From the NCBI GenBank assembly GCA_963667195.1, contig OY762962.1, positions 2,138,591-2,202,590 of the forward strand: a stretch of 64,000 nt of DNA. Reading direction: 5' to 3'. Source of the stretch: Christensenellaceae bacterium (GTDB taxonomy: Bacteria > Bacillota > Clostridia > Christensenellales > CAG-138). The notes beneath the pieces are model-generated. The model saw only the letters and a program-made list of their open reading frames with translations. It was not told the origin of the DNA and did not search any database. A program made the translations under genes and the position numbers. Of this stretch, positions 4,247 to 32,299 are shown piece after piece; position 1 is the stretch's first letter; the number at the start of each line of letters is the position of its first letter.

Positions 4247-5338
4247 ATGTTTCACGGAATCATCAACGGCATGAGCGATTTGATGCTGCTTTCCAACGCG
4301 CAGTCGCGCTCCATCAGCGCGGAAAACCCAACGGGAGAAGTCAGCGGCGGTGCGCGCTGTCCGTTGGAGAAGGGCATTTCGGGGAACGCCGCGCGCGAAC
4401 TCGGCGTTGGTTGGAAGGTGAACCCGAACATCGTGATTCCGACGCAGACGACGGCGGATTTGGCCGTCATTGAAGGACCGGGTGTGATTCAGCACATTTG
4501 GATGACTGTTTCCAAACCCTGGCGCAATTTGATCCTGCGCTTTTACTGGGATCATCAGGAACAACCTTCGGTCGAGGTTCCAATCGGGGATTTCTTTGCG
4601 AGTGGTTGGAACGAATATAGCCAGCTTTCCTCGCTTGCGGTATGCGTCAATCCAGGCAGCGCGTTTAACTGCTACTGGCAGATGCCGTTTCAAAAACACT
4701 GCCGCATCACGCTTGAAAACCGCTCGAAGGAATTTGAGGCGACTTGCTTTTACCAGATCGATTATTGCCTCACTGAGGTGCCGGAGCACAGCGCGTATTT
4801 TCATGCTCAGTTTCGCAGGGCAAACCCGCTTCCGTATAAAGAGGTGTTTACCATTGTGGACGGCATTCAGGGCAGAGGGCACTATGTTGGCACCTATATG
4901 GCTTGGGGTGTCAATAATCGCGGCTGGTGGGGCGAAGGAGAGATCAAATTTTATCTGGATGGGGAAGCCGAGCATCCAACGATATGTGGAACCGGAACCG
5001 AGGATTATTTCTGCGGCTCTTATGATTTCGAGGATCCGCGGCAAAAGCCCGGCCAGTACAGCGAGTTCACGACGCCATACGCCGGCCTGCATCAGGTGCT
5101 TACGCCGGACAAGCTTTATAACAGCCAGTTCCGCTTTGGCATGTACCGTTGGCACATCACAGACCCAATCCGTTTCCAGAGCGGGCTTCGAGTGACCATG
5201 CAAGCGCTGGGTTGGCGCGAGCATGGCAGGTACCTTCCGCTTCAGGATGATATTGCATCGGTGGCTTACTGGTACCAGGAGCTGCCACACGCAAGTTTTC
5301 CAAAGCTGCAAGATAAAGATAGTCTCGAAGTGATTTGA
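4247..5338 (+). CDS. DUF2961 family protein (glycoside hydrolase family GH172-like)
   Basis: A GAGAGGGA RBS precedes ATG 4247. The GTGTEDYF motif and ~360 aa size are typical of DUF2961. It lies in a glycosidase cluster. Confidence 0.7.
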   Translation: MFHGIINGMSDLMLLSNAQSRSISAENPTGEVSGGARCPLEKGISGNAARELGVGWKVNPNIVIPTQTTADLAVIEGPGVIQHIWMTVSKPWRNLILRFYWDHQEQPSVEVPIGDFFASGWNEYSQLSSLAVCVNPGSAFNCYWQMPFQKHCRITLENRSKEFEATCFYQIDYCLTEVPEHSAYFHAQFRRANPLPYKEVFTIVDGIQGRGHYVGTYMAWGVNNRGWWGEGEIKFYLDGEAEHPTICGTGTEDYFCGSYDFEDPRQKPGQYSEFTTPYAGLHQVLTPDKLYNSQFRFGMYRWHITDPIRFQSGLRVTMQALGWREHGRYLPLQDDIASVAYWYQELPHASFPKLQDKDSLEVI

Positions 5339-5452
5339 TCGTTGTACGTTGCCTTTGACACAGTACTTAAGAGAAACGCAGTTTGGCAGCGTCAACTCGG
5401 GCAACTCTGAATCACATTAAACGAACTTAATTTCGACAATGAAGGTGACTAA

Positions 5453-6115
5453 GTGAAACAGATTCTTTGCTACGGTGACTCAAATACGTATGGTTACAAT
5501 ATAAATGCAAACGCAGGTCAGCCAATCCGATTACAAAGTGATTTGCGTTGGACGGGACTTCTACGGCTATTGTTGGGGGACTCGTATAATATTGTGGTAG
5601 AAGGCTTGAGTGGAAGAACAATAGGTTTTCAAGATCCATTCGCATCGGGAAGACGCGCGCTGGATTGGTGGATCCCTTGCATCGAAAGCCATTTCCCGGT
5701 CGATGCCATTGTACTAATGCTTGGCACGAATGACGTGAAAGTGGAATATCATGCAACGCCATCCCAAATAGCGTCAGGACTGGGTCAAATGATTCGCGAG
5801 CTTTATCAACATTACAAGCTATTGCAACTCGACCCGCCGAAGTTGATTGTGGTTTGTCCTCCACCGCTCGAAGAAACTGCCGGTATCAACAGCGAAGGGA
5901 TGTTTGATTTACAGTCTGTTGCAGCATCACACGAGCTTGCGGAACTATATCGACAGACTGCTCAGACATATTCCTGCTGCTTTCTGGACGCAGGCAAGGT
6001 AACTAGATTTGATATGCAAGAGGGGATTCATCTGAATATCATTGGTCATTTATTGCTAGCAAAAGCTATCGCAGGAATCATCAGTGGAATGAATTGGTTG
6101 GAGAGGTTGGAGTGA
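5453..6115 (+). CDS. SGNH/GDSL-family hydrolase (esterase)
   Basis: It has the N-terminal block I motif CYGDSNTYG and the later LGTND block. The start codon is GTG, preceded by AAGGTGA. Confidence 0.8.
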   Translation: MKQILCYGDSNTYGYNINANAGQPIRLQSDLRWTGLLRLLLGDSYNIVVEGLSGRTIGFQDPFASGRRALDWWIPCIESHFPVDAIVLMLGTNDVKVEYHATPSQIASGLGQMIRELYQHYKLLQLDPPKLIVVCPPPLEETAGINSEGMFDLQSVAASHELAELYRQTAQTYSCCFLDAGKVTRFDMQEGIHLNIIGHLLLAKAIAGIISGMNWLERLE

Positions 6116-6329
6116 CGGACGGATTAATCCTAGAAGTTGCGCATGGGTACCACTTGTTCAAATGCTAGGTGGTTTTAGATCTAAAAGTTTTAGCATTTTT
6201 CTTAATAGGGTATCCACGACCAGATCGCAACATAATTTCTGCAAATACCATATTGTTTATAGGTTGCTTTTTTCACAACAAAGGAAACTGTTTTTATAGA
6301 GAAACGAAGAATCCACTTGGAGGTAATCA

Positions 6330-23876: not shown

Positions 23877-24140
23877 ATTCACAATTAAATACTCCAAACT
23901 CCAAGTTTATCGGCAGCTTTCTTCAACGGAGAGGTGCCGATTCACTTCCGAGACGAAGGAACCCATAGTGTCTCTTCTAGCTGTTCACCCTCGAACACTT
24001 GGCTTTACAGGTTTGTGATTTATTCTTTTTATAAACGATCTGCGCAGCACTGATGGCATTGATTAATAGGTTAAATCGCTTGGGCAGGTTAGTTAACGAG
24101 AAAGCCTAAACACAGATTCTAAAACACACTATGCGTAGTC

Positions 24141-24357: not shown

Positions 24358-24774
24358 TTGGAACACTTCGTTGAGGACATAGAGTGGGAGTTATTCGATA
24401 GCTTCTGCAAGCAAGTTATTAAAAACGCGGGTCGGAATATTCGACGTCGATACTTAAGACAGTTACTGAATGAAAGCCTTATGGGATTCCCTGAACAAGA
24501 GAACACAAATATAGGCGTTCATTATGATGCTTATCCTTCGGATGGAGATTATATCGAATTTAATGGGAATCTGTATCCAGTTAAGAAAAGCTGGCTACAA
24601 ATCATTCTACAACAACTTCCGAAGAAACAACTTGGAGTACTTATTTTAGGGTATTGGTGTGGATACACTGACGAGCAAATTGCAGTTAATTATAAAATTT
24701 CTACGCGAACAGTACAAAATCTGAGAGCTCGTGCGTTTGAAAAGATACGGAGGTATCGTCTAAGTATAAAATGA
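24358..24774 (+). CDS. Small sigma-70-like protein (region 4 HTH), mobile-element type
   Basis: The C-terminal LPKKQLGVLILGYWCGYTDEQIAVNYKISTRTVQNLRARAFEKIRRY is a sigma-70 region-4-like HTH. It lies in AT-rich island DNA and starts with TTG. Confidence 0.6.
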   Translation: MEHFVEDIEWELFDSFCKQVIKNAGRNIRRRYLRQLLNESLMGFPEQENTNIGVHYDAYPSDGDYIEFNGNLYPVKKSWLQIILQQLPKKQLGVLILGYWCGYTDEQIAVNYKISTRTVQNLRARAFEKIRRYRLSIK

Positions 24775-24828
24775 CCCCTCCGTTATCAAGATAGACACCG
24801 ATTGCCTAACGGTGAAAACGGAGGGAAT

Positions 24829-25053
24829 ATGGGGAAGGTCCCAAAGGACACGATTTTCCGAGCCATCAAAGGCGATGACACGGCAATCGAGGAGGTAATT
24901 CTGGTTTATGACAATTACATCAACAAAGTAGCTACATTTAACTTCAAGAACAAGGAGGGGCATACATATAGGATTGTCTCCGAAGACGCAAAGCAGGAAC
25001 TAATAGAAAAACTAATCAAAGCGTTGCCTAAATGGAAAGGACTTAAGAAATGA
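24829..25053 (+). CDS. Small HTH protein of the conjugative-transposon type (Tn916 Orf7/8-like)
   Basis: AIKGDDTAIEEVILVYDNYINKV resembles the sigma region-2-like helix of the small HTH proteins that accompany sigma-like genes in Firmicute ICEs. A GGAGGG RBS lies upstream. Confidence 0.45.
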   Translation: MGKVPKDTIFRAIKGDDTAIEEVILVYDNYINKVATFNFKNKEGHTYRIVSEDAKQELIEKLIKALPKWKGLKK

Positions 25054-25871
25054 TAGTACTACCAGATCTTTTTGAATTTGCTTATGTGCCCAACTGGTGT
25101 GACCATCTCAGCGCATTGGCTGAGATGGCCATGCCAGAGACATGGCATTTTTCGCATCCTTTAGTGCCGCCAAAGAACTCGGATACGCCGATACTAGAGA
25201 AACTCGTCAATTACGTTTTTAAGAAACAAGTTATCGATTTTAATAATCTTCCAGTCGGATCCGATCCGGAATTTGCGGACAGAATCTTTTTTATCAGAAA
25301 TGAAAAAGCATGTTTCAACACTGGACTCTATACAAAGAATTTTAAGAGCATCTATGGGTGTTTCACTCGTAATAAACGCAAAGATGCTATGCAAGACTGG
25401 TTCTTCCGTGGATTCTATGACGATGTTGCCCCCGATCTGAAGTATGTGCAGCCATTGCCGGATAAACCGGGTTTCTTGCTGCCGATCACGGGGATGACAT
25501 ATTTCCCTGCTTGGGACATACGCGTCAATGTGAACCACATTCTTTGTGATCCTGAAAACTTCGCACGCCTGCCGGTTGAAGTGCAGCGCGCGAAGAACTT
25601 ATCGCTTCTACTAGAAACCGCCGTCGAATTGGCTCGACGCAAAGCGTCATTTGAACCCGGCATCGTAGTGCCGCAGGGATATCAAGGCAAGGTGCAGTTT
25701 TTGCTCCCGCTTTGCTTGCGGGATATGGAGCGCACTGACCTCGCTATGACGCTCACGCCCATGGACGGCTACTATCTTGGCCATACCTGTCTGACGCTGG
25801 AGATGGCTTATTTGAACGCGCGTTTGATCGGTAGACCGATCGCTCCCTGGCTTCTGGAACTCGTGACCTGA
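25050..25871 (+). CDS. DUF3825-like hypothetical protein
   Basis: The start overlaps the previous stop (ATGA). The blocks LAEMAMPETW, PILEKLVNYVF, ACFNTGLY and WFFRGF match my memory of DUF3825 proteins. This was not verified. Confidence 0.45.
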   Translation: MIVLPDLFEFAYVPNWCDHLSALAEMAMPETWHFSHPLVPPKNSDTPILEKLVNYVFKKQVIDFNNLPVGSDPEFADRIFFIRNEKACFNTGLYTKNFKSIYGCFTRNKRKDAMQDWFFRGFYDDVAPDLKYVQPLPDKPGFLLPITGMTYFPAWDIRVNVNHILCDPENFARLPVEVQRAKNLSLLLETAVELARRKASFEPGIVVPQGYQGKVQFLLPLCLRDMERTDLAMTLTPMDGYYLGHTCLTLEMAYLNARLIGRPIAPWLLELVT

Positions 25872-25959
25872 TCTTCCGGCTGCCGCCCTCAGGGGTTAAG
25901 GATAAAGCTGATCTGCCCCCGTTTTCTGGATCAGGAGCAATGTTAGGAAATGAATCGTT

Positions 25960-26804
25960 CTAGGCAGCAATCGGAACCACGGTTTGAGGGGCGGGCGGCC
26001 GCCCGCCGAGGCTCGAATGCGGCCTGACCTGATTGTAGTAACGAACCCATCGCTGCGTCAACACTTGCGCCTCATACATGGTGTCAAACAACTCGCCATT
26101 CAAGAATTCAGCCCGCATACGAGCATTGAAACTCTCGATATAACCGTTCTCCCATGGACTGCCCGGCTCGATATAGGCTGTAATGGAACCTGCATCTCTC
26201 AGCCATTTACGAATCTGTTTAGCGGTGAATTCACTTCCGTTATCGCTTCTCATATACTCCGGAACCCCGCGGGTCAGCATGAGGTCTGATAGTAATTCAA
26301 TTACATCATTGTTCCGCCAACTTCTGCGTGGCACGCTGGCGAGGCATTCGTGTGTATGTTCATCCAGGACGTTCAGGAATCGGATCTTTCGACCATTACT
26401 GGTTCTGTCTTCTACAAAATCATAACCCCATACATGATTCTTATGCTCTGCTCTCAGACGGATGCAGCTGCCATCCGTTAGCCAGAGCCTGCGCTTTTTT
26501 GCTTGCTTTTTCGGCAGTTTCAAGCCTTCTTCCCGCCAGATTCGTTCAACGCGCTTATGGTTGATTAGAATTCCTTCGTTCCGAAGCATATAAGTAACCA
26601 TCCGATACCCGACTCGTCCGCAATTAGTAACCAATCGGATGATCGCGGCTCGGATCTCGTCTTCGTCACTGCGTTTCACAGGTTCATAACGACAACTGTT
26701 GCGGTTGATTTGCAATACCCTGCAAGCCCGTCTTTCTGCCACATGATGTTTGACCACGGCATACTTGACAGCCGCTAAGCGCTTGGCAGGGCTTAGAAGT
26801 TTTT
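25960..26804 (-). CDS. IS3-family transposase OrfB (DDE/RNase-H integrase core), expressed as an OrfAB fusion by -1 frameshift
   Basis: It carries the rve-type core (HVWGYDF..., LNVLDEHTHE, SDNGSEFTA, YIESFNARMRAEFL, RPHSSLGGRPPA). The -1 frame is open from the slippery site at 26798-26804. Confidence 0.9.
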
Positions 26805-27071
26805 TGAGTTCACATCCCTAAGAATTGAGATATCCAACGCTTGCTCGGCTACCAGCTTCTTTAAACGTGCGTTTTCTTTTTCCAGCTCCTTCATTCGTCG
26901 CGCATCACTTGTGTTCATTCCACCGTATTCTTTTCGCCAGCGATAGTATGTCTGCTCGGTGATTCCGAGCCCCCTGCAGGCTTCTGTAATCGTTTTGCCT
27001 TGATTACAATGCAGTTCTACCTCCCGCAGCTTGACAATGATCTGTTCGACCGTGAAGTTCTTTCTTGCCAT
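26793..27071 (-). CDS. IS3-family transposase OrfA (HTH)
   Basis: MARKNFTVEQIIVKLREVE...TYYRWRKEYGGM...RLKKLVAEQALD has the typical IS3/IS407 OrfA HTH followed by a leucine zipper. Confidence 0.9.
   Translation of the reverse strand: MARKNFTVEQIIVKLREVELHCNQGKTITEACRGLGITEQTYYRWRKEYGGMNTSDARRMKELEKENARLKKLVAEQALDISILRDVNSKNF
26798..26804 (-). other. Programmed -1 ribosomal frameshift heptamer (A AAA AAC)
   Basis: The minus strand reads TCA AAA AAC TTC TAA. Shifting -1 gives KKLLSPAKRLAAVKYAVVKHH..., which is continuous with OrfB. Confidence 0.7.
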
Positions 27072-27527
27072 CTTCTTTCAGCTCCTTTGTTAGTCTTTTT
27101 TCTCTTTTTCCTAACATTGTAGCTGGCCCGGTTCCGTGGGGCTAGATCATTATTTCTTTTTGTTGACCAAGTTTGGTTTCATAGCAAGAATTATTTCACT
27201 ATATCATACAATTTTTGGAATCATGCAAATGACCAATTAAGGAGCCTATTATAAATTACTCTGAGTCTTGGGCGTGAGAGCTATCATTCTGTTAAACTTT
27301 CATTTGAAAAATAATGGTTTGATTATTACACGATAATTTAATTTCGATTCGTTTTATCTGCGAGTGTTTGCTGAGAAGGAAGCGCTTACCCACGATAGAT
27401 TCTTTGATAGCAATCCAATACGAAGGGCGCATTGCTACACTTTGGGTTTTTTAAATATCGTGTTTAGTAGATAGTATTCATTTTGTAATTGCGACTTCCC
27501 ACACAAGAAGGAAATTTATTGCAGCGT

Positions 27528-28187
27528 TTAGCTGAGATTAGTGCCTTTTGTTTGTTTTAATTTGACTATTTTTTCAAGCACAATTGTGCCATTTGTTCCA
27601 TCTTCTCTATTCGTAAAATATCTTCCTTTCATATTATTGCCATTAACAATAAACGTATTGTATCCATCGTGCTTTTTTGTCTTCCAATCAACACAATATG
27701 AATCATTGCAATATGGGAACCCGAACTCAACCCCGCTTTCGCCATTTGAAAATATAAAAGCTGCGATGCTATGCGAAGTTGATCTCGGAAAGGCGCAAAT
27801 AACACTAATATGGTCCCAATCCTGTCTAATTTCCATTGAAAACTCAATTCTTGTTGGAACACCATCTGTTAAGTAAGAAGAAATTAACTCACCTTTCCAT
27901 GTTCCATTCAGGTTTGGGATACTATGAAATTTAGAAATTATGGGTATCGTCCACAACACTTTGCGAAACAGCAAGTAAAGTACTCCAAATACGCCCAACA
28001 AGGTTACTGAAGATACTGATAATCCAAAGAAATCCAATGTTGAGATAATTGATTTAAGACAAGATGGAATATTGATCAAGATAGTACTAAGTAAATAATT
28101 AATCAGCTTTGCTGCAAAAAACGAAATGAAAAGCATTATAAGCAAAGCAGTTTTTCGAACATTTGAATCGATTGAATAAAATTTCAT
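27528..28187 (-). CDS. cap15: CBASS effector, Cap15-like (two N-terminal TM helices plus a beta-strand-rich C-terminal domain; S-2TMbeta type)
   Basis: The two hydrophobic helices are TALLIMLFISFFAAKLINYLL and VSSVTLLGVFGVLYLLF. They are followed by LNGTWKGEL and a ~120 aa beta-rich domain. It is the last gene of the CD-NTase/Cap2/Cap3 operon, 5 nt after the cap3 stop. Confidence 0.75.
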   Translation of the reverse strand: MKFYSIDSNVRKTALLIMLFISFFAAKLINYLLSTILINIPSCLKSIISTLDFFGLSVSSVTLLGVFGVLYLLFRKVLWTIPIISKFHSIPNLNGTWKGELISSYLTDGVPTRIEFSMEIRQDWDHISVICAFPRSTSHSIAAFIFSNGESGVEFGFPYCNDSYCVDWKTKKHDGYNTFIVNGNNMKGRYFTNREDGTNGTIVLEKIVKLKQTKGTNLS

Positions 28188-28192
28188 TGCGA

Positions 28193-28675
28193 TTAAACCT
28201 CGATAATCTGATAGTCAATAATAATTCCTCTGCTGCTGGAGGAGGAAACCCCAATAAACAATTTTCCAGTGCTACCAAGAATGAACATGAAATAGTGTGT
28301 GAAGACGCAGCTTTTTTCTTTTGCGATGGTGTTCAATAGTATTTGATCCGTCATTGAAGGCATTGGGTTGGCGAATGGATGAGTGTGCCATTCCCCAAGA
28401 TAATTCACAATGCCTTTTGAATTTCTCCATCTTTGATTAATTACTTGTTGAGCAGCTTTCTTGCTCCTTAGAAATCCGAATCGCGTTCTTTTATCAAACT
28501 GATTTGGACGTGTTAGTTCAGAAATGGTATAGTCTTCGGAACCAACTAACTTTTTACCCAACAGTATTCCGCCTGCCTCAAAATCAAAGGCACCTTGGGA
28601 ATAACACTTAATTACTTCAATTATCGAAGGTTGGATATGAACCGCAATGTTATATTTGAAATGAATGTCAATCAT
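28193..28675 (-). CDS. cap3: CBASS Cap3, JAB/JAMM-family metallo-isopeptidase
   Basis: It has EAGGILLG (upstream Glu) and an exact JAMM motif HTHPFANPMPSMTD (HxHx7SxxD). It overlaps cap2 by 8 nt (ATGATTGA). Confidence 0.9.
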   Translation of the reverse strand: MIDIHFKYNIAVHIQPSIIEVIKCYSQGAFDFEAGGILLGKKLVGSEDYTISELTRPNQFDKRTRFGFLRSKKAAQQVINQRWRNSKGIVNYLGEWHTHPFANPMPSMTDQILLNTIAKEKSCVFTHYFMFILGSTGKLFIGVSSSSSRGIIIDYQIIEV

Positions 28676-30326
28676 CGCTAATTATCTCACAATACAGCTT
28701 ACTCCATTGCAGGTCTTTATATTGATCATTTATTTCAAGATTAAATTTTTCAGCAATCCCATAATTTCCCAACCAGAAGAATCGATAATTCGAATTAGTC
28801 ATGAATAAATTATTTGTGAAAAGATAATCAAGAAAAGCAACTACAAACATTTCTACATGCAGAGAAGAATACTGAATATATGTAGCTTGACATCCAGAGT
28901 CTCTCTTTTGATAATTGCCTGCATGCTGGACTACCGTATGCTTATAATTGAAGTGACCATCATATAACTCGGAGAATATATCTTGTGGTTTTTGCAGAAC
29001 AAGAACATGTGCTGCGATCGCGTAAGGTTCAAGCCACATGATGATCACAGGCTTAGTTATCGTGCGCTCACAAAGACAAGTTATTATATGTGCGTCAATA
29101 GAGATGTCAGCAGTGGTTATAAAAATCGCATCGCAGTTATTAAGTAAATCCACAGATGATCGTAATACTGTGTGTATGTTTGTATTGGTGCAATCACAAG
29201 AAATATTCGGGTTTTTTAAACTGAGATAAAAATCTGTCGCTAGTGTTTTCAAACGATCTACGTGGAAGTACCCGCATAAATGTCTTGCTATATTATCTAC
29301 AGACAAAGAATCATAATCAAAAAGTGAAAACTGATTCATTCCACAATCTGCTAGTAAATTAGCTAAATGACTACCTAAAGAACCACATCCGACGATTGCT
29401 ACTTTACTTAATGGGAATAGTTTGCCGATTCCTCCGCGCGTGAATAGACGATTTTGCGAGCAATCGCGAACCTTTACTCGTTCGACTAATTTATCACCCT
29501 CCGAACCCATGAGAACTAGCGAAACTGGAGTGTTTCCGCTTTCAAATGAAGGGTGATCACCCAAAGCAGAATGTGTAAACCCGCAAGGGATCCATTTGTG
29601 CTCCACTTCGAGAGTGAAGATTACCAGAAAAGATTGCTTTGAATTTTTCCGTAAGAAAAAACAATACTGATCATATGCAGATGAGTGGGTTTTTATAATT
29701 TCTAGCCAATTTCTTTGCGTCAATGCAGATATGGTGTCATTAAACGAAACAATTGGAACAAGAATTGCGGTAAAAATGTCTTTATGATCCTCGTCATATT
29801 TTAGGGCATTTTTTGCAATCTTAATTACTTTATCAGATGAATTTGCTGCTATAATTGATTTCTCGTTTGTAATGCAAAAAAGAACTTGAAAAAAAGACAA
29901 ATCATCAACAAACAAATCGACTTCAATTTTGTCTTCAATATTTCCTTCCCAATACGCTTTAAATTCGTCATTAAAAGCTTCCTTGTCTTTTTCTTGGTTT
30001 GTATCACAAATCATAGAAATTGCTTTCTCAATTGTGTCGATAATAATCATTTCTGGCCTATAAAAATTAGGAAATACTATATCAGAACCGTAAGTGCAAA
30101 GAAAGCCGCCAATAAAAACATGTGGGCGGCCCGACAAAATTCTTTTCGCAGCGTCTCCTAATTGTATTTTTGGCAAAACATATGGGAAATCATCATCAAT
30201 GGAGCAAACAAAAGCATACTCCTGTTCGCCAGCAAATGCCGATATTTCAAAACAGGAGTTTTGAAAAGTAATCTTTATTCCTTTTCCGGTAAAATATTCA
30301 ATTACTGATTCAACCAGATCTTCCAT
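28668..30326 (-). CDS. cap2: CBASS Cap2, E2-like/E1-like (ThiF) fusion protein
   Basis: The N-terminal ~150 aa is E2-like, with HVFIGGFLC. The C-terminal part is a ThiF/E1 Rossmann domain, VAIVGCGSLGSHLANLLADCGMNQFSLFDYDSLSVDNIARH. It is 552 aa and overlaps the cdn stop by 17 nt. Confidence 0.9.
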   Translation of the reverse strand: MEDLVESVIEYFTGKGIKITFQNSCFEISAFAGEQEYAFVCSIDDDFPYVLPKIQLGDAAKRILSGRPHVFIGGFLCTYGSDIVFPNFYRPEMIIIDTIEKAISMICDTNQEKDKEAFNDEFKAYWEGNIEDKIEVDLFVDDLSFFQVLFCITNEKSIIAANSSDKVIKIAKNALKYDEDHKDIFTAILVPIVSFNDTISALTQRNWLEIIKTHSSAYDQYCFFLRKNSKQSFLVIFTLEVEHKWIPCGFTHSALGDHPSFESGNTPVSLVLMGSEGDKLVERVKVRDCSQNRLFTRGGIGKLFPLSKVAIVGCGSLGSHLANLLADCGMNQFSLFDYDSLSVDNIARHLCGYFHVDRLKTLATDFYLSLKNPNISCDCTNTNIHTVLRSSVDLLNNCDAIFITTADISIDAHIITCLCERTITKPVIIMWLEPYAIAAHVLVLQKPQDIFSELYDGHFNYKHTVVQHAGNYQKRDSGCQATYIQYSSLHVEMFVVAFLDYLFTNNLFMTNSNYRFFWLGNYGIAEKFNLEINDQYKDLQWSKLYCEIISDD

Positions 30327-31272
30327 CGCTTCCTAATACACCGGGTGCAGAGGTTCTTTGATAAACACTTGCACTATTCGTCTCTTCGGTTTTACTGCTT
30401 TTAGTAATTGGAAATCTACTCCCAAAACATGAGTTCAATTTCTCTGTTGCAACAGCTATATCGCTCGCATCGATAGCAGAGCTTAAGGCGTCACGTAGAG
30501 AAGCAAGTTTACTTATTATAGATTCTTTTTTTGTTTTACTATGGCCTTCAAATAAATCTTCATATGGAAAAACTGGTTTATAGCATGAGTAGTTTAACTG
30601 AAGTTTGTCAAGCATCAAGGACAAAGTGTCCCGCATAGCTTTATCATCTCGATTAGAATACGGTGAAAAGTTTTGTGCTACGAGGATTGTTATTTCTACG
30701 CCTTTTAAGTCGACGTCTTTGAAATCTTTCCACGCTTTTAGATATCGAACAACGCGGCGTAGTTGCTCTCCCTTTATTGCAAGAAGATTTATGAACCAAT
30801 CTTTAAAAGCTTTCGGATCACTCTGAAGCCAACCCTTGGATTTGTGGGCTAAATATGCAATATTATTGCTAACAATATATATTGGAAGATCAACATGATA
30901 ACCGGCCGAATAGTAAACTCGAATACATGTGCTTTTATCCTTTGAGTCTTCTTTTGTTTGATCATCCACCGCATTGAGCACCCATCTATGGACGGTATCT
31001 ACGGAATCCCATTCATCAGTAGCAGTATTTTCATAGCCCTGCAAGTAAATACCATCATCAATATCATAATCATCATCTAGGGGATTAACAATTGTTTTCA
31101 TTGCGAAAGAGCCTTGCCAGCAGAACTTTGGACAATACATGTCATTTTCGTTAAAATAGTCGCGTATTATTTTGCGAAGGGCATCGCGACTTGTTTGTAA
31201 AGAATTGGTTTTTGCGGACGTCAAAGTAATTGAAGAATTATAACTTTGAAAAGCATCATGGGAATTTGCCAT
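30310..31272 (-). CDS. cdn: cGAS/DncV-like nucleotidyltransferase (CD-NTase, SMODS family)
   Basis: It has the pol-beta NTase signature QGSFAMKT...DYDIDDG (GS...DxD) and a third acidic residue in GYHVDLPIY. Downstream blocks are WLQSDPKAFKDWF and RYLKAWK. The C-terminal tail ends ...GSDGRSG. A GGAGGG RBS lies 9 nt upstream. Confidence 0.9.
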   Translation of the reverse strand: MANSHDAFQSYNSSITLTSAKTNSLQTSRDALRKIIRDYFNENDMYCPKFCWQGSFAMKTIVNPLDDDYDIDDGIYLQGYENTATDEWDSVDTVHRWVLNAVDDQTKEDSKDKSTCIRVYYSAGYHVDLPIYIVSNNIAYLAHKSKGWLQSDPKAFKDWFINLLAIKGEQLRRVVRYLKAWKDFKDVDLKGVEITILVAQNFSPYSNRDDKAMRDTLSLMLDKLQLNYSCYKPVFPYEDLFEGHSKTKKESIISKLASLRDALSSAIDASDIAVATEKLNSCFGSRFPITKSSKTEETNSASVYQRTSAPGVLGSDGRSG

Positions 31273-31311
31273 TCGTCAGATCCCTCCAAGTATTTCTTAC
31301 CATTATAGCAT

Positions 31312-31320
31312 GTACGTCTT
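31312..31320 (-). promoter_or_regulatory. Candidate extended -10 promoter element (TGcTATAAT) for the CBASS operon
   Basis: The minus strand reads ...ACATGCTATAATGG.... The element is ~40 nt upstream of the cdn ATG. The -35 is poor, so this is only a candidate. Confidence 0.35.
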
Positions 31321-31375
31321 ATTTTTCATATACAACAAATGATTTCATTAGTAGTTTGCGATATAGATATTTATA

Positions 31376-31548
31376 TGATCGGCCCCCCGATTCTTAGGCA
31401 AGGAGCATTATTAGTCGGCTAGGTGCTGAGGTAGCAACAAGGATAATGGTTTGAGGGCGGGCGGCTACCCATCAAGGCCCGAATGTGGCTTGATCTGATT
31501 GTAGTAGCGAGCCCATCGCTGCGCTAATACTTGCGCTTCAAACACAAG
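31376..31548 (-). mobile_element. Truncated copy of a related IS3-family element (terminal IR plus the last ~35 codons of orfB)
   Basis: It starts TGATCGGCCCCCCGATTCT..., compared with TGATCTGCCCCCGTTTTCT... at 25919. It then aligns by eye with 25976-26080 (GGTTTGAGGG.GGGCGGC...CTGATTGTAGTA.CGA.CCCATCGCTGCG). Similarity stops near 31548. Confidence 0.7.
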
Positions 31549-31795
31549 ACGGTTATTACTCTCAAATATTCAAAAATCGAAAGATTTGCTACTAATTACA
31601 AATGATAGTTTTGTGGATTCGAAGATAACTCTGGCAATTTAAAAGCTACCTGCAATAAAGTTTGATCTATAATGATAGAACTTTTGACGATCTCGAATGA
31701 TCATTTACTATCGATCATCCCAACAAACATCAAATAAACATCAGGTAGTAGGTTTTGACCCCATTCTGTGCCTAAGAATGATTCTCAAGATATGC

Positions 31796-31822
31796 AAAAA
31801 CCGCCCGAATTGGGCGGTTTTT
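31796..31822 (-). terminator. Rho-independent terminator downstream of tRNA-fMet
   Basis: The sequence is AAAAACCGCCC-GAATT-GGGCGGTTTTT: a GC-rich stem followed by a T run on the minus strand. Confidence 0.7.
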
Positions 31823-31825
31823 AAT

Positions 31826-31901
<76 letters not shown>

Positions 31902-32299
31902 ACATTCGTCTTTCGACGTGCAAAAAGTAATATATCACACGTGATACGGAAAGTCAACCCCGCAAATGCATATTTCGACTTATACTGCATTCGACGTGTC
32001 ATGATCACAACCCATGTGAAGAACGCTGGGGACAAATTTGTATCTTAACCGCATCACCATATTTAAGTATTGCGAAAAGAAACGATCTGCGCAATAATAT
32101 AAGAAGCGTTTCTCTGTATTCCTGCGCACGGGGCATACTCCACTTCTTATTTCCCGTGACGCTAAATAAAGGAGGGATACCCATCCGCAAGGCTTGCGGT
32201 GCGGCAGTGTGGAGACCTGCTGTAATGCGACCGTCACATCATCGGGCGGTTGCGAGTTGGGCGATGAGCGAACGCTGCGCCTGATGAAGCCGAAACACT

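Follow-up and report, generated by a model that had tools for sequence, protein, structure and literature searches.

A predicted Cap15-family membrane effector encoded at the end of a type II CBASS operon on a low-GC island of a Christensenellaceae bacterium

[quoted passage not shown] The gene, cap15, lies on the minus strand at 27528..28187 of the stretch that we analyzed, here called the window, which comprises 64,000 nucleotides of contig OY762962.1 (positions 2,138,591 to 2,202,590) and provides the numbering used throughout. We put the probability of this reading, with the mechanism described below, at roughly 0.88. By all criteria of sequence and structure that could be applied here, the protein appears to be an ordinary and intact member of its family. 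The S-2TMbeta family was reportedly named by Burroughs and colleagues in 2015.

The reading frame of cap15 begins with an ATG at 28187, ends with a TAA at 27528-27530, and encodes 219 amino acids (aa). A Shine-Dalgarno sequence, GAGG, is found 9 nt 5' of the start codon, and 5 nt separate cap15 from the stop codon of cap3, the gene before it. This is not a chance open reading frame (ORF), because a relative with 92% identity occurs in a metagenome (E value 6e-129) and because 1008 cluster representatives match the protein at E ≤ 1e-3 when 1.8 billion of them are searched exhaustively with HMMER. Look-ups by exact sequence gave no entry for Cap15 or for a flanking ABC ATPase of the window. At the 50% clustering level, the nearest neighbors are 36-44% identical. 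Matches were obtained with PADLOC, Pfam, PDB, and Foldseek.

Residues 89-206 (27570..27923, minus strand) are predicted to form the beta-barrel that serves as the cyclic-dinucleotide receptor domain of the family. Pfam PF18153 (Cap15_CD_rec) scores 66.2 bits on these residues, against a cut-off of 31.2 bits, and is aligned over positions 2-122 of its 122. The PADLOC model of the CBASS 2TM effector, PDLC00705, matches with an E value of 4.2e-52, with residues 1-207 aligned to positions 1-200 of the 203 in the profile; 14 further PADLOC 2TM effector models also match. A phmmer search of the PDB sequences found the Cap15 chain 7N34 with an E value of 8.9e-6. The residues W97, Q122, S136, S138, N161, G175, Y190, and G200 are conserved in a family alignment of 81 sequences and are identical in the alignment with 7N34. 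Families of nucleases, phospholipases, TIR, or SAVED domains gave no match to the protein in Pfam (E ≤ 1) or PADLOC (E ≤ 0.01). No NCBIfam model matches the effector, which reflects a gap in that library and is no evidence against family membership.

The predicted fold agrees with this assignment. An AlphaFold2 model, for which the 81-sequence alignment was used as input, has a mean predicted local distance difference test score (pLDDT) of 95.8 and a predicted template modeling score (pTM) of 0.86. It contains nine beta strands over residues 95-206, with a pLDDT > 90, whereas residues 10-88 are helical. When the model was compared with the PDB by Foldseek, the top three matches were the Cap15 structures of Yersinia aleksiciae, 7N34, 7N35_A, and 7N35_B, with target-normalized template modeling scores (TMt) of 0.85, 0.87, and 0.82, root-mean-square deviations (rmsd) of 2.2, 2.0, and 2.8 Å, respectively, and identities of 21-22%. 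The matches past rank three are unrelated small barrels, mostly with an rmsd ≥ 4.7 Å and E ≥ 1e-3.

The membrane-anchor region is assigned to residues 11-84 (27936..28157, minus strand) on the basis of hydropathy, helices in the AlphaFold2 model, the distribution of charges, and membership in the family, including a sub-threshold match to the Pfam model Cap15_TM. In Kyte-Doolittle plots with windows of 19 residues, the hydropathy reaches 1.6 or more in just two stretches, residues 11-38 and 51-84. The model has helices at residues 10-38, 42-53, 63-76, and 82-88. There are three positive charges and one negative charge ahead of the first transmembrane (TM) segment, TM1, one of each in the loop, and three positive charges and no negative charge past TM2. 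By the positive-inside rule, this pattern agrees with an N-in/C-in topology, in which the two ends of the protein are cytoplasmic. The C-terminal barrel would then also be located in the cytoplasm, as is required of a sensor of cytoplasmic nucleotides. The hydrophobic segments are followed by PNLNGTWKGEL, in which LNGTWKGEL corresponds to residues 93-101.

The original prediction, which had been made by eye from the DNA letters, anticipated most of this picture. It had proposed the S-2TMbeta/Cap15 architecture that PF18153 and 7N34 now support, for a terminal gene at exactly the coordinates given above. Its two hydrophobic helices, at about residues 13-37 and 55-75, fall within the segments delimited by hydropathy, and the beta-rich domain of about 120 aa that it had placed after LNGTWKGEL is found as an all-beta domain of about 118 aa with nine predicted strands. 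It had also seen no nuclease, phospholipase, TIR, or SAVED domain. Those of its suggested checks that could be carried out here all turned out in its favor. The overlay of an AlphaFold model on the Cap15 barrel, which it had suggested as a check, returned 7N34 and 7N35 as the top three matches (TMt 0.82-0.87), and its caution that the divergence from characterized Cap15 proteins may be large agrees with an identity of about 22% to the Yersinia barrel.

The two ends of the protein were also compared across the family. At the extreme N-terminus (residues 1-11, window 28157-28187), M1, Y4, and R11 are conserved in at least 90% of the 81 sequences, and 31 of the 81 carry M-x-x-Y-S-[IVLM]-[DNSE]. 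Residues 2-6 are predicted by AlphaFold2 to be a short beta strand preceding TM1, and this conserved strand may dock on the cytoplasmic barrel. The C-terminal tail (residues 213-219, window 27528-27551), which lies outside the barrel domain, reads …KQTKGTNLS, compared with the basic …KHRRMR and …KQNRNR in the closest relatives, and is 3 residues longer than in these. The difference is probably unimportant.

The genes that precede cap15 place it in a type II CBASS operon. On the minus strand, the order is CD-NTase, cap2, cap3, and cap15, and cap15 is the last of the genes in this operon with a CD-NTase. The CD-NTase and cap2 genes overlap by 17 nt, cap2 and cap3 overlap by 8 nt, and the 5-nt gap follows between cap3 and cap15. 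Because a CD-NTase, a Cap2 E1/E2 protein, and a Cap3 JAB protein precede the effector in one operon, the locus is classified as type II CBASS, and as read from its genes, it is a textbook layout of this type.

CD-NTase (30310..31272, minus strand): The protein of 320 aa is clade-B-like and resembles cGAMP (cyclic GMP-AMP) synthases, as seen in the PADLOC, Pfam, and NCBIfam matches and in the similarity to PDB 7LJO. The PADLOC cyclase model PDLC00774 matches with an E value of 1.4e-108, and the Pfam matches are DncV-like_NTFase, SMODS, and DncV_C. The motifs GS (residues 54-55), DYDIDD (68-73), and HVDLP (126-130) are intact. About 25 residues extend past the part aligned with Bacteroides fragilis CdnB (BfCdnB), from about residue 294 to residue 320, and end in ...LGSDGRSG. 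In type II systems, Cap2 conjugates the C-terminus of the cyclase, which primes the enzyme, and Cap3 undoes the conjugation; an extended tail that ends in a small residue (Gly or Ala), which Cap2 can adenylate, is needed (bioRxiv 10.1101/2022.03.31.486616). The CD-NTase of the window has such an extended C-terminal tail with a terminal Gly.

Cap2 (28668..30326, minus strand): This protein of 552 aa is an E2-E1 fusion of Prok-E2_B and ThiF. It matches the PADLOC E1-E2 model PDLC00850 over its full length (E 1e-128), and both Pfam domains score above their cut-offs. Its nucleotide-binding loop, GCGSLGS, is found at residues 313-319.

Cap3 (28193..28675, minus strand): This JAB/JAMM isopeptidase of 160 aa matches the PADLOC JAB model PDLC00896 (E 2e-39) and Pfam Prok-JAB, and the NCBIfam Cap3 model matches below its cut-off. 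The JAMM motif HTHPFANPMPSMTD (HTH-x7-S-xx-D) is intact at residues 97-110.

A promoter-like site is located 5' of the CD-NTase gene at 31302..31329 (minus strand). It consists of ATGAAA, a spacer of 16 nt, and TG-TATAAT with an extended -10 TG, and it agrees with the consensus at 10 of 12 positions. We regard it as a candidate only, because such sites are no more common in the region than in shuffled sequences. The same scan for promoters and terminators, with counts no higher than in shuffles, found no terminator after cap15.

The same cassette occurs elsewhere. Two Eubacterium metagenome-assembled genomes, with loci L001 and L002, carry all four genes with identical best PADLOC models for each gene; they are both of the loci that a genome search with a 9-sequence Cap15 alignment returned, and their identity is 38-40%. 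On metagenome contigs, the cyclase, Cap2, and Cap3 have 320, 552, and 160 aa, as in the window, and Cap15 has 216 instead of 219 aa. These cassettes are flanked by neighbors other than those in the window, e.g., serine recombinases. The linkage of CD-NTase and cap15 is seen in L001, L002, and contig HwF6Gm1j and partially in L003, L004, and L005. In all six related loci, cap3 (JAB) is located directly 5' of cap15, and the remaining CBASS genes are present wherever the contig is long enough.

Taken together with characterized systems, these features suggest the following mechanism. The two N-terminal hydrophobic helices are predicted to anchor Cap15 in the cytoplasmic membrane, so that both termini and a barrel of eight to nine beta strands would face the cytoplasm. 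The upstream genes encode a CD-NTase that appears to be catalytically intact, together with Cap2 as an E1/E2 ligase and Cap3 as a JAB isopeptidase. By analogy, conjugation of the C-terminal glycine by Cap2 would prime the CD-NTase, and Cap3 would reverse this step. Upon phage infection, the CD-NTase would produce a cyclic dinucleotide that would bind to the Cap15 barrel. The likeliest candidate for this ligand is 3'3'-cGAMP or a closely related purine cyclic dinucleotide; its identity is the weakest step. Cap15 would then form higher-order oligomers in the inner membrane, the membrane would lose its integrity, and the infected cell would die before the release of phages (abortive infection). 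As papers citing the original work describe it, Cap15 binds cyclic dinucleotides with its barrel, oligomerizes, and causes disruption of the inner membrane (Duncan-Lowey 2021, via PMC10419184, PMC12480259, PMC12657230). A staphylococcal Cap15 is activated upon synthesis of cGAMP by its cyclase, and uptake of propidium iodide follows (PMC10686824).

The ligand can be approached through the cyclase. Its best PDB match is 7LJO (E 1.4e-41, residues 1-294). 7LJO is BfCdnB, a clade B04 enzyme that prefers GTP through Asp238 of lid 3 and makes mainly 3'3'-cGAMP (PMC10442399). The segment PYEDLF (residues 236-241) of the window cyclase aligns with PYDDLF of BfCdnB, and the acidic pair is kept. In addition, the NCBIfam equivalog NF041078, "CBASS cGAMP synthase," scores 235 bits against a cut-off of 150, in a match that is composed of two stretches. 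Since the cyclase is nearest to BfCdnB and passes the cGAMP-synthase cut-off, the ligand is probably 3'3'-cGAMP or a close purine dinucleotide, to which we would give somewhat better than even odds. The original prediction had left the ligand open. This stands insofar as the ligand cannot be transferred from Yersinia Cap15, but the question is not fully open, as the partner cyclase, which is CdnB-like and resembles cGAMP synthases, favors 3'3'-cGAMP or a closely related purine dinucleotide.

Membership in the Cap15 family is contradicted by nothing that we observed, but the reading has several weak points, and some of them concern the anchor. The second hydrophobic segment is split into two helices in the model (residues 63-76 and 82-88), and its exact extent is uncertain. 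On residues 16-80, Pfam Cap15_TM (PF23471) reaches 19.8 bits, short of its cut-off of 28.2 bits, which means that the TM region has diverged from the sequences in the Pfam seed; the full-length PADLOC 2TM model nonetheless spans it and matches from residue 1. Insertion sequence (IS) elements are present on the same island, so regulation or function may have been lost. Other points concern the ligand. Predicting the product from the clade of a CD-NTase is unreliable. The window cyclase has a Glu, followed by an Asp, opposite the lid-3 Asp238 of BfCdnB. The sole Cap15 with a solved structure, that of Yersinia, senses uracil-containing dinucleotides according to papers that cite the work (Duncan-Lowey 2021). 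Its barrel is about 22% identical to that of the window, and the ligand contacts are therefore not transferable.

These last points also favor an alternative in which the protein is a Cap15-family effector but responds to a ligand other than 3'3'-cGAMP, such as a 3'2' or 2'3' isomer, c-di-AMP, c-di-GMP, or a pyrimidine-containing dinucleotide. We consider this a minority reading that nevertheless deserves serious attention. The window barrel has the same family-wide conserved positions as the Yersinia barrel, whose uracil preference is described in the citing literature, Glu replaces Asp opposite lid 3, and the similarity of the cyclase to BfCdnB is moderate (294 residues at the E value given above), with the NCBIfam match in two stretches. 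On the other hand, the closest structural relative of the cyclase mainly makes 3'3'-cGAMP, with an acidic lid 3 that selects GTP (PMC10442399), and the Glu-Asp pair is kept here. Moreover, the equivalog cut-off for cGAMP synthases is exceeded (235 vs 150 bits), and activation of a Cap15 by cGAMP has a precedent (PMC10686824). For these reasons, 3'3'-cGAMP or a close purine dinucleotide is kept as the probable ligand.

The cassette is part of a low-GC stretch of about 23.9-31.8 kb, with a step in GC content at about 31.8 kb. Its own GC content is 35-37%, compared with 50-60% in the flanking sugar-utilization genes. A tRNA-Met (CAT) detected by ARAGORN flanks the island at 31826..31901 (minus strand). 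About 400 bp downstream of cap15, an IS3-family element is found at 25926..27131 (minus strand), with orfA at 26793-27071 and orfB at 25960-26757; it matches the NCBIfam model transpos_IS3 with 223.6 bits, and candidates for its terminal inverted repeats are located near 25926 and 27131. A relic of 116 bp from the 3' end of an IS3 transposase gene lies between the tRNA-Met and the CBASS promoter candidate at 31429..31544 (minus strand). It was recognized through the direct repeats D1 and D2, which are 72-82% identical to 25962-26078, and it has the same orientation as the IS3 copy. IS3 sequence thus brackets the CBASS cassette. The cassette is considered to be horizontally acquired, because its GC content is low compared with the host, it adjoins a tRNA-Met, and an IS3 element and an IS3 relic are found at its sides.

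Such a setting raises the alternative that the cassette is a decaying, non-functional passenger of a degraded mobile element, with silent, mis-regulated, or subtly inactivated genes. The low-GC island, in which an IS3 copy lies on one side of the cassette and an IS3 relic on the other, would suit it, as would a promoter that is a consensus match only and the last seven residues of Cap15, which are unlike those of the closest relatives. However, the four ORFs are complete, and the lengths of the cyclase, Cap2, and Cap3 equal those in independent contigs. The catalytic motifs that were checked are intact, and the overlaps typical of translational coupling are kept. When cap15 is compared with its counterpart in L003 (94% nucleotide identity), 14 synonymous and 18 non-synonymous changes are found in 212 codons, from which a rough count gives a ratio of non-synonymous to synonymous substitution rates (dN/dS) of about 0.4, unlike the pattern of a pseudogene. 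We regard decay as improbable.

Least probable of all, to the point of being nearly negligible, is an inverted logic as in Panoptes, in which Cap15 would be toxic by default and restrained by a constitutive cyclic dinucleotide until a phage sponge depletes this nucleotide: the Panoptes effector OptE/2TMbeta does belong to the S-2TMbeta family, has the same architecture, and conserves the nucleotide-binding residues of Cap15, and sequence by itself is silent on whether the ligand stabilizes a monomer or an oligomer, but Panoptes effectors pair with an mCpol synthase (a minimal Cas10 palm) in two-gene operons, whereas the partners here are a CD-NTase, Cap2, and Cap3, i.e., the activation machinery of type II CBASS, no mCpol-like gene adjoins cap15, and cap3 is directly 5' of cap15 in 6/6 related loci. 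An assignment of the locus to Panoptes (mCpol and OptE) was rejected on gene context, as the neighbors are Cap3, Cap2, and the CD-NTase and no other synthase-like ORF is adjacent.

Some further observations concern the island. In L003, a metagenome copy of the cassette that is 93% identical, a segment (2472-2607) located about 190 bp downstream of cap15 has 74% identity with 31703-31843 of the window. The match covers the last 18 nt of the window tRNA-Met, its terminator hairpin, and a further 100 nt or so, and no intact tRNA is present at L003:2472-2607. From its sequence, the segment looks like an att-type remnant of the 3' end of tRNA-Met, and the cassette may accordingly be carried by an element that targets tRNA-Met and is arranged differently in the genomes of the window and of L003. 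An exact direct repeat of 14 nt, AAACGATCTGCGCA, occurs at 24033-24046 and 32080-32093, with one copy close to each edge of the low-GC stretch; about 0.16 such pairs would be expected by chance in 9.2 kb. It may be a mark of the island boundary or a coincidence. At the other end of the island, 24358-25871 on the plus strand encodes proteins with Sigma70_r4 (138 aa), HTH_16 (83 aa), and DUF3825 (273 aa, 220 bits). The Sigma70_r4 and HTH_16 proteins may resemble the regulator pair of the orf7/orf8 type in conjugative transposons like Tn916. Within the island, neither an integrase nor a recombinase was seen.

Downstream of cap15, the related loci differ from the window. An ORF of 166-172 aa, convergent to cap15, lies about 70 bp downstream of it in three of them (L004:3218-3718, L005:1490-1990, and HwF6Gm1j 4974-5492) and has no match in Pfam. 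Homology of the window to these three contigs ends at 27346. We checked whether the IS3 element had truncated the 166-aa ORF, and the window holds at most a weak match of 10 residues to it (E 0.02). In the Eubacterium locus L001, cap15 and the next ORF on its strand, of 223 aa (5625-6296), are 19 nt apart. Neither PADLOC nor Pfam gave a match to it, and it could be an extra member of the operon in that lineage.

Compared with Yersinia aleksiciae Cap15 (7N34/7N35), the window protein has the same pair of TM helices at the N-terminus and the same small C-terminal barrel. Likewise, it scores above the PF18153 threshold, shares the barrel positions conserved in the family along with the fold, and is encoded by the terminal gene of a CD-NTase operon. 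It differs in the low identity of its barrel, in a TM region that stays under the Pfam cut-off, and in its expected ligand, which is a purine dinucleotide instead of the uracil-containing dinucleotide of Yersinia. The Cap15 operons discussed in PMC10442399 and PMC10686824 have a clade-E cyclase and are of type I, whereas the window combines a CdnB-like cyclase with Cap2 and Cap3 in type II. A further comparison is with Ssc-CBASS of Staphylococcus schleiferi (CdnE03 and Cap15), in which the Cap15 of a Gram-positive organism is activated downstream of cGAMP synthesis and permeabilizes the membrane without lysis (Banh et al. 2023, PMC10686824). That system is of type I-B, with two genes and a clade-E cyclase that senses RNA (PMC10686824), whereas the CdnB-like cyclase of the window would be under the control of Cap2 and Cap3. 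With BfCdnB (7LJO), the window cyclase has in common the catalytic residues GS, DxD, and D and the acidic lid-3 region, and differs at the lid-3-aligned residue, which is Glu in the window and Asp in BfCdnB; this likeness concerns the cyclase and not the effector. OptE/2TMbeta of Panoptes is of the same family and architecture and also disrupts the membrane, but it has an mCpol partner and is inhibited by the nucleotide, whereas the window Cap15 stands in a CBASS context.

The existing hidden Markov models of defense finders already recognize all four genes of the operon end to end. A mobile island here carries a complete type II CBASS in a Firmicute background of the gut or rumen type, and a reading of the raw sequence correctly recognized the Cap15 effector; beyond annotation, this matters little. 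Its value is modest and lies in a candidate for a Cap15 that would sense a purine dinucleotide under the control of Cap2 and Cap3, an arrangement that, in the literature consulted, is less characterized than the type I pairs of CdnE and Cap15. A more tentative idea, which we think is rather unlikely to hold in full, is that this clostridial clade, in which Cap15 is always linked to a CdnB-like cyclase, Cap2, and Cap3, has a purine-specific pocket unlike that of Yersinia and that its conserved N-terminal strand (M-x-x-Y-S-I-D...R, residues 1-11) docks on the barrel and couples ligand binding to a movement of TM1. If true, this would explain for the first time, in structural terms, how the helices in the membrane are gated by an S-2TMbeta barrel.

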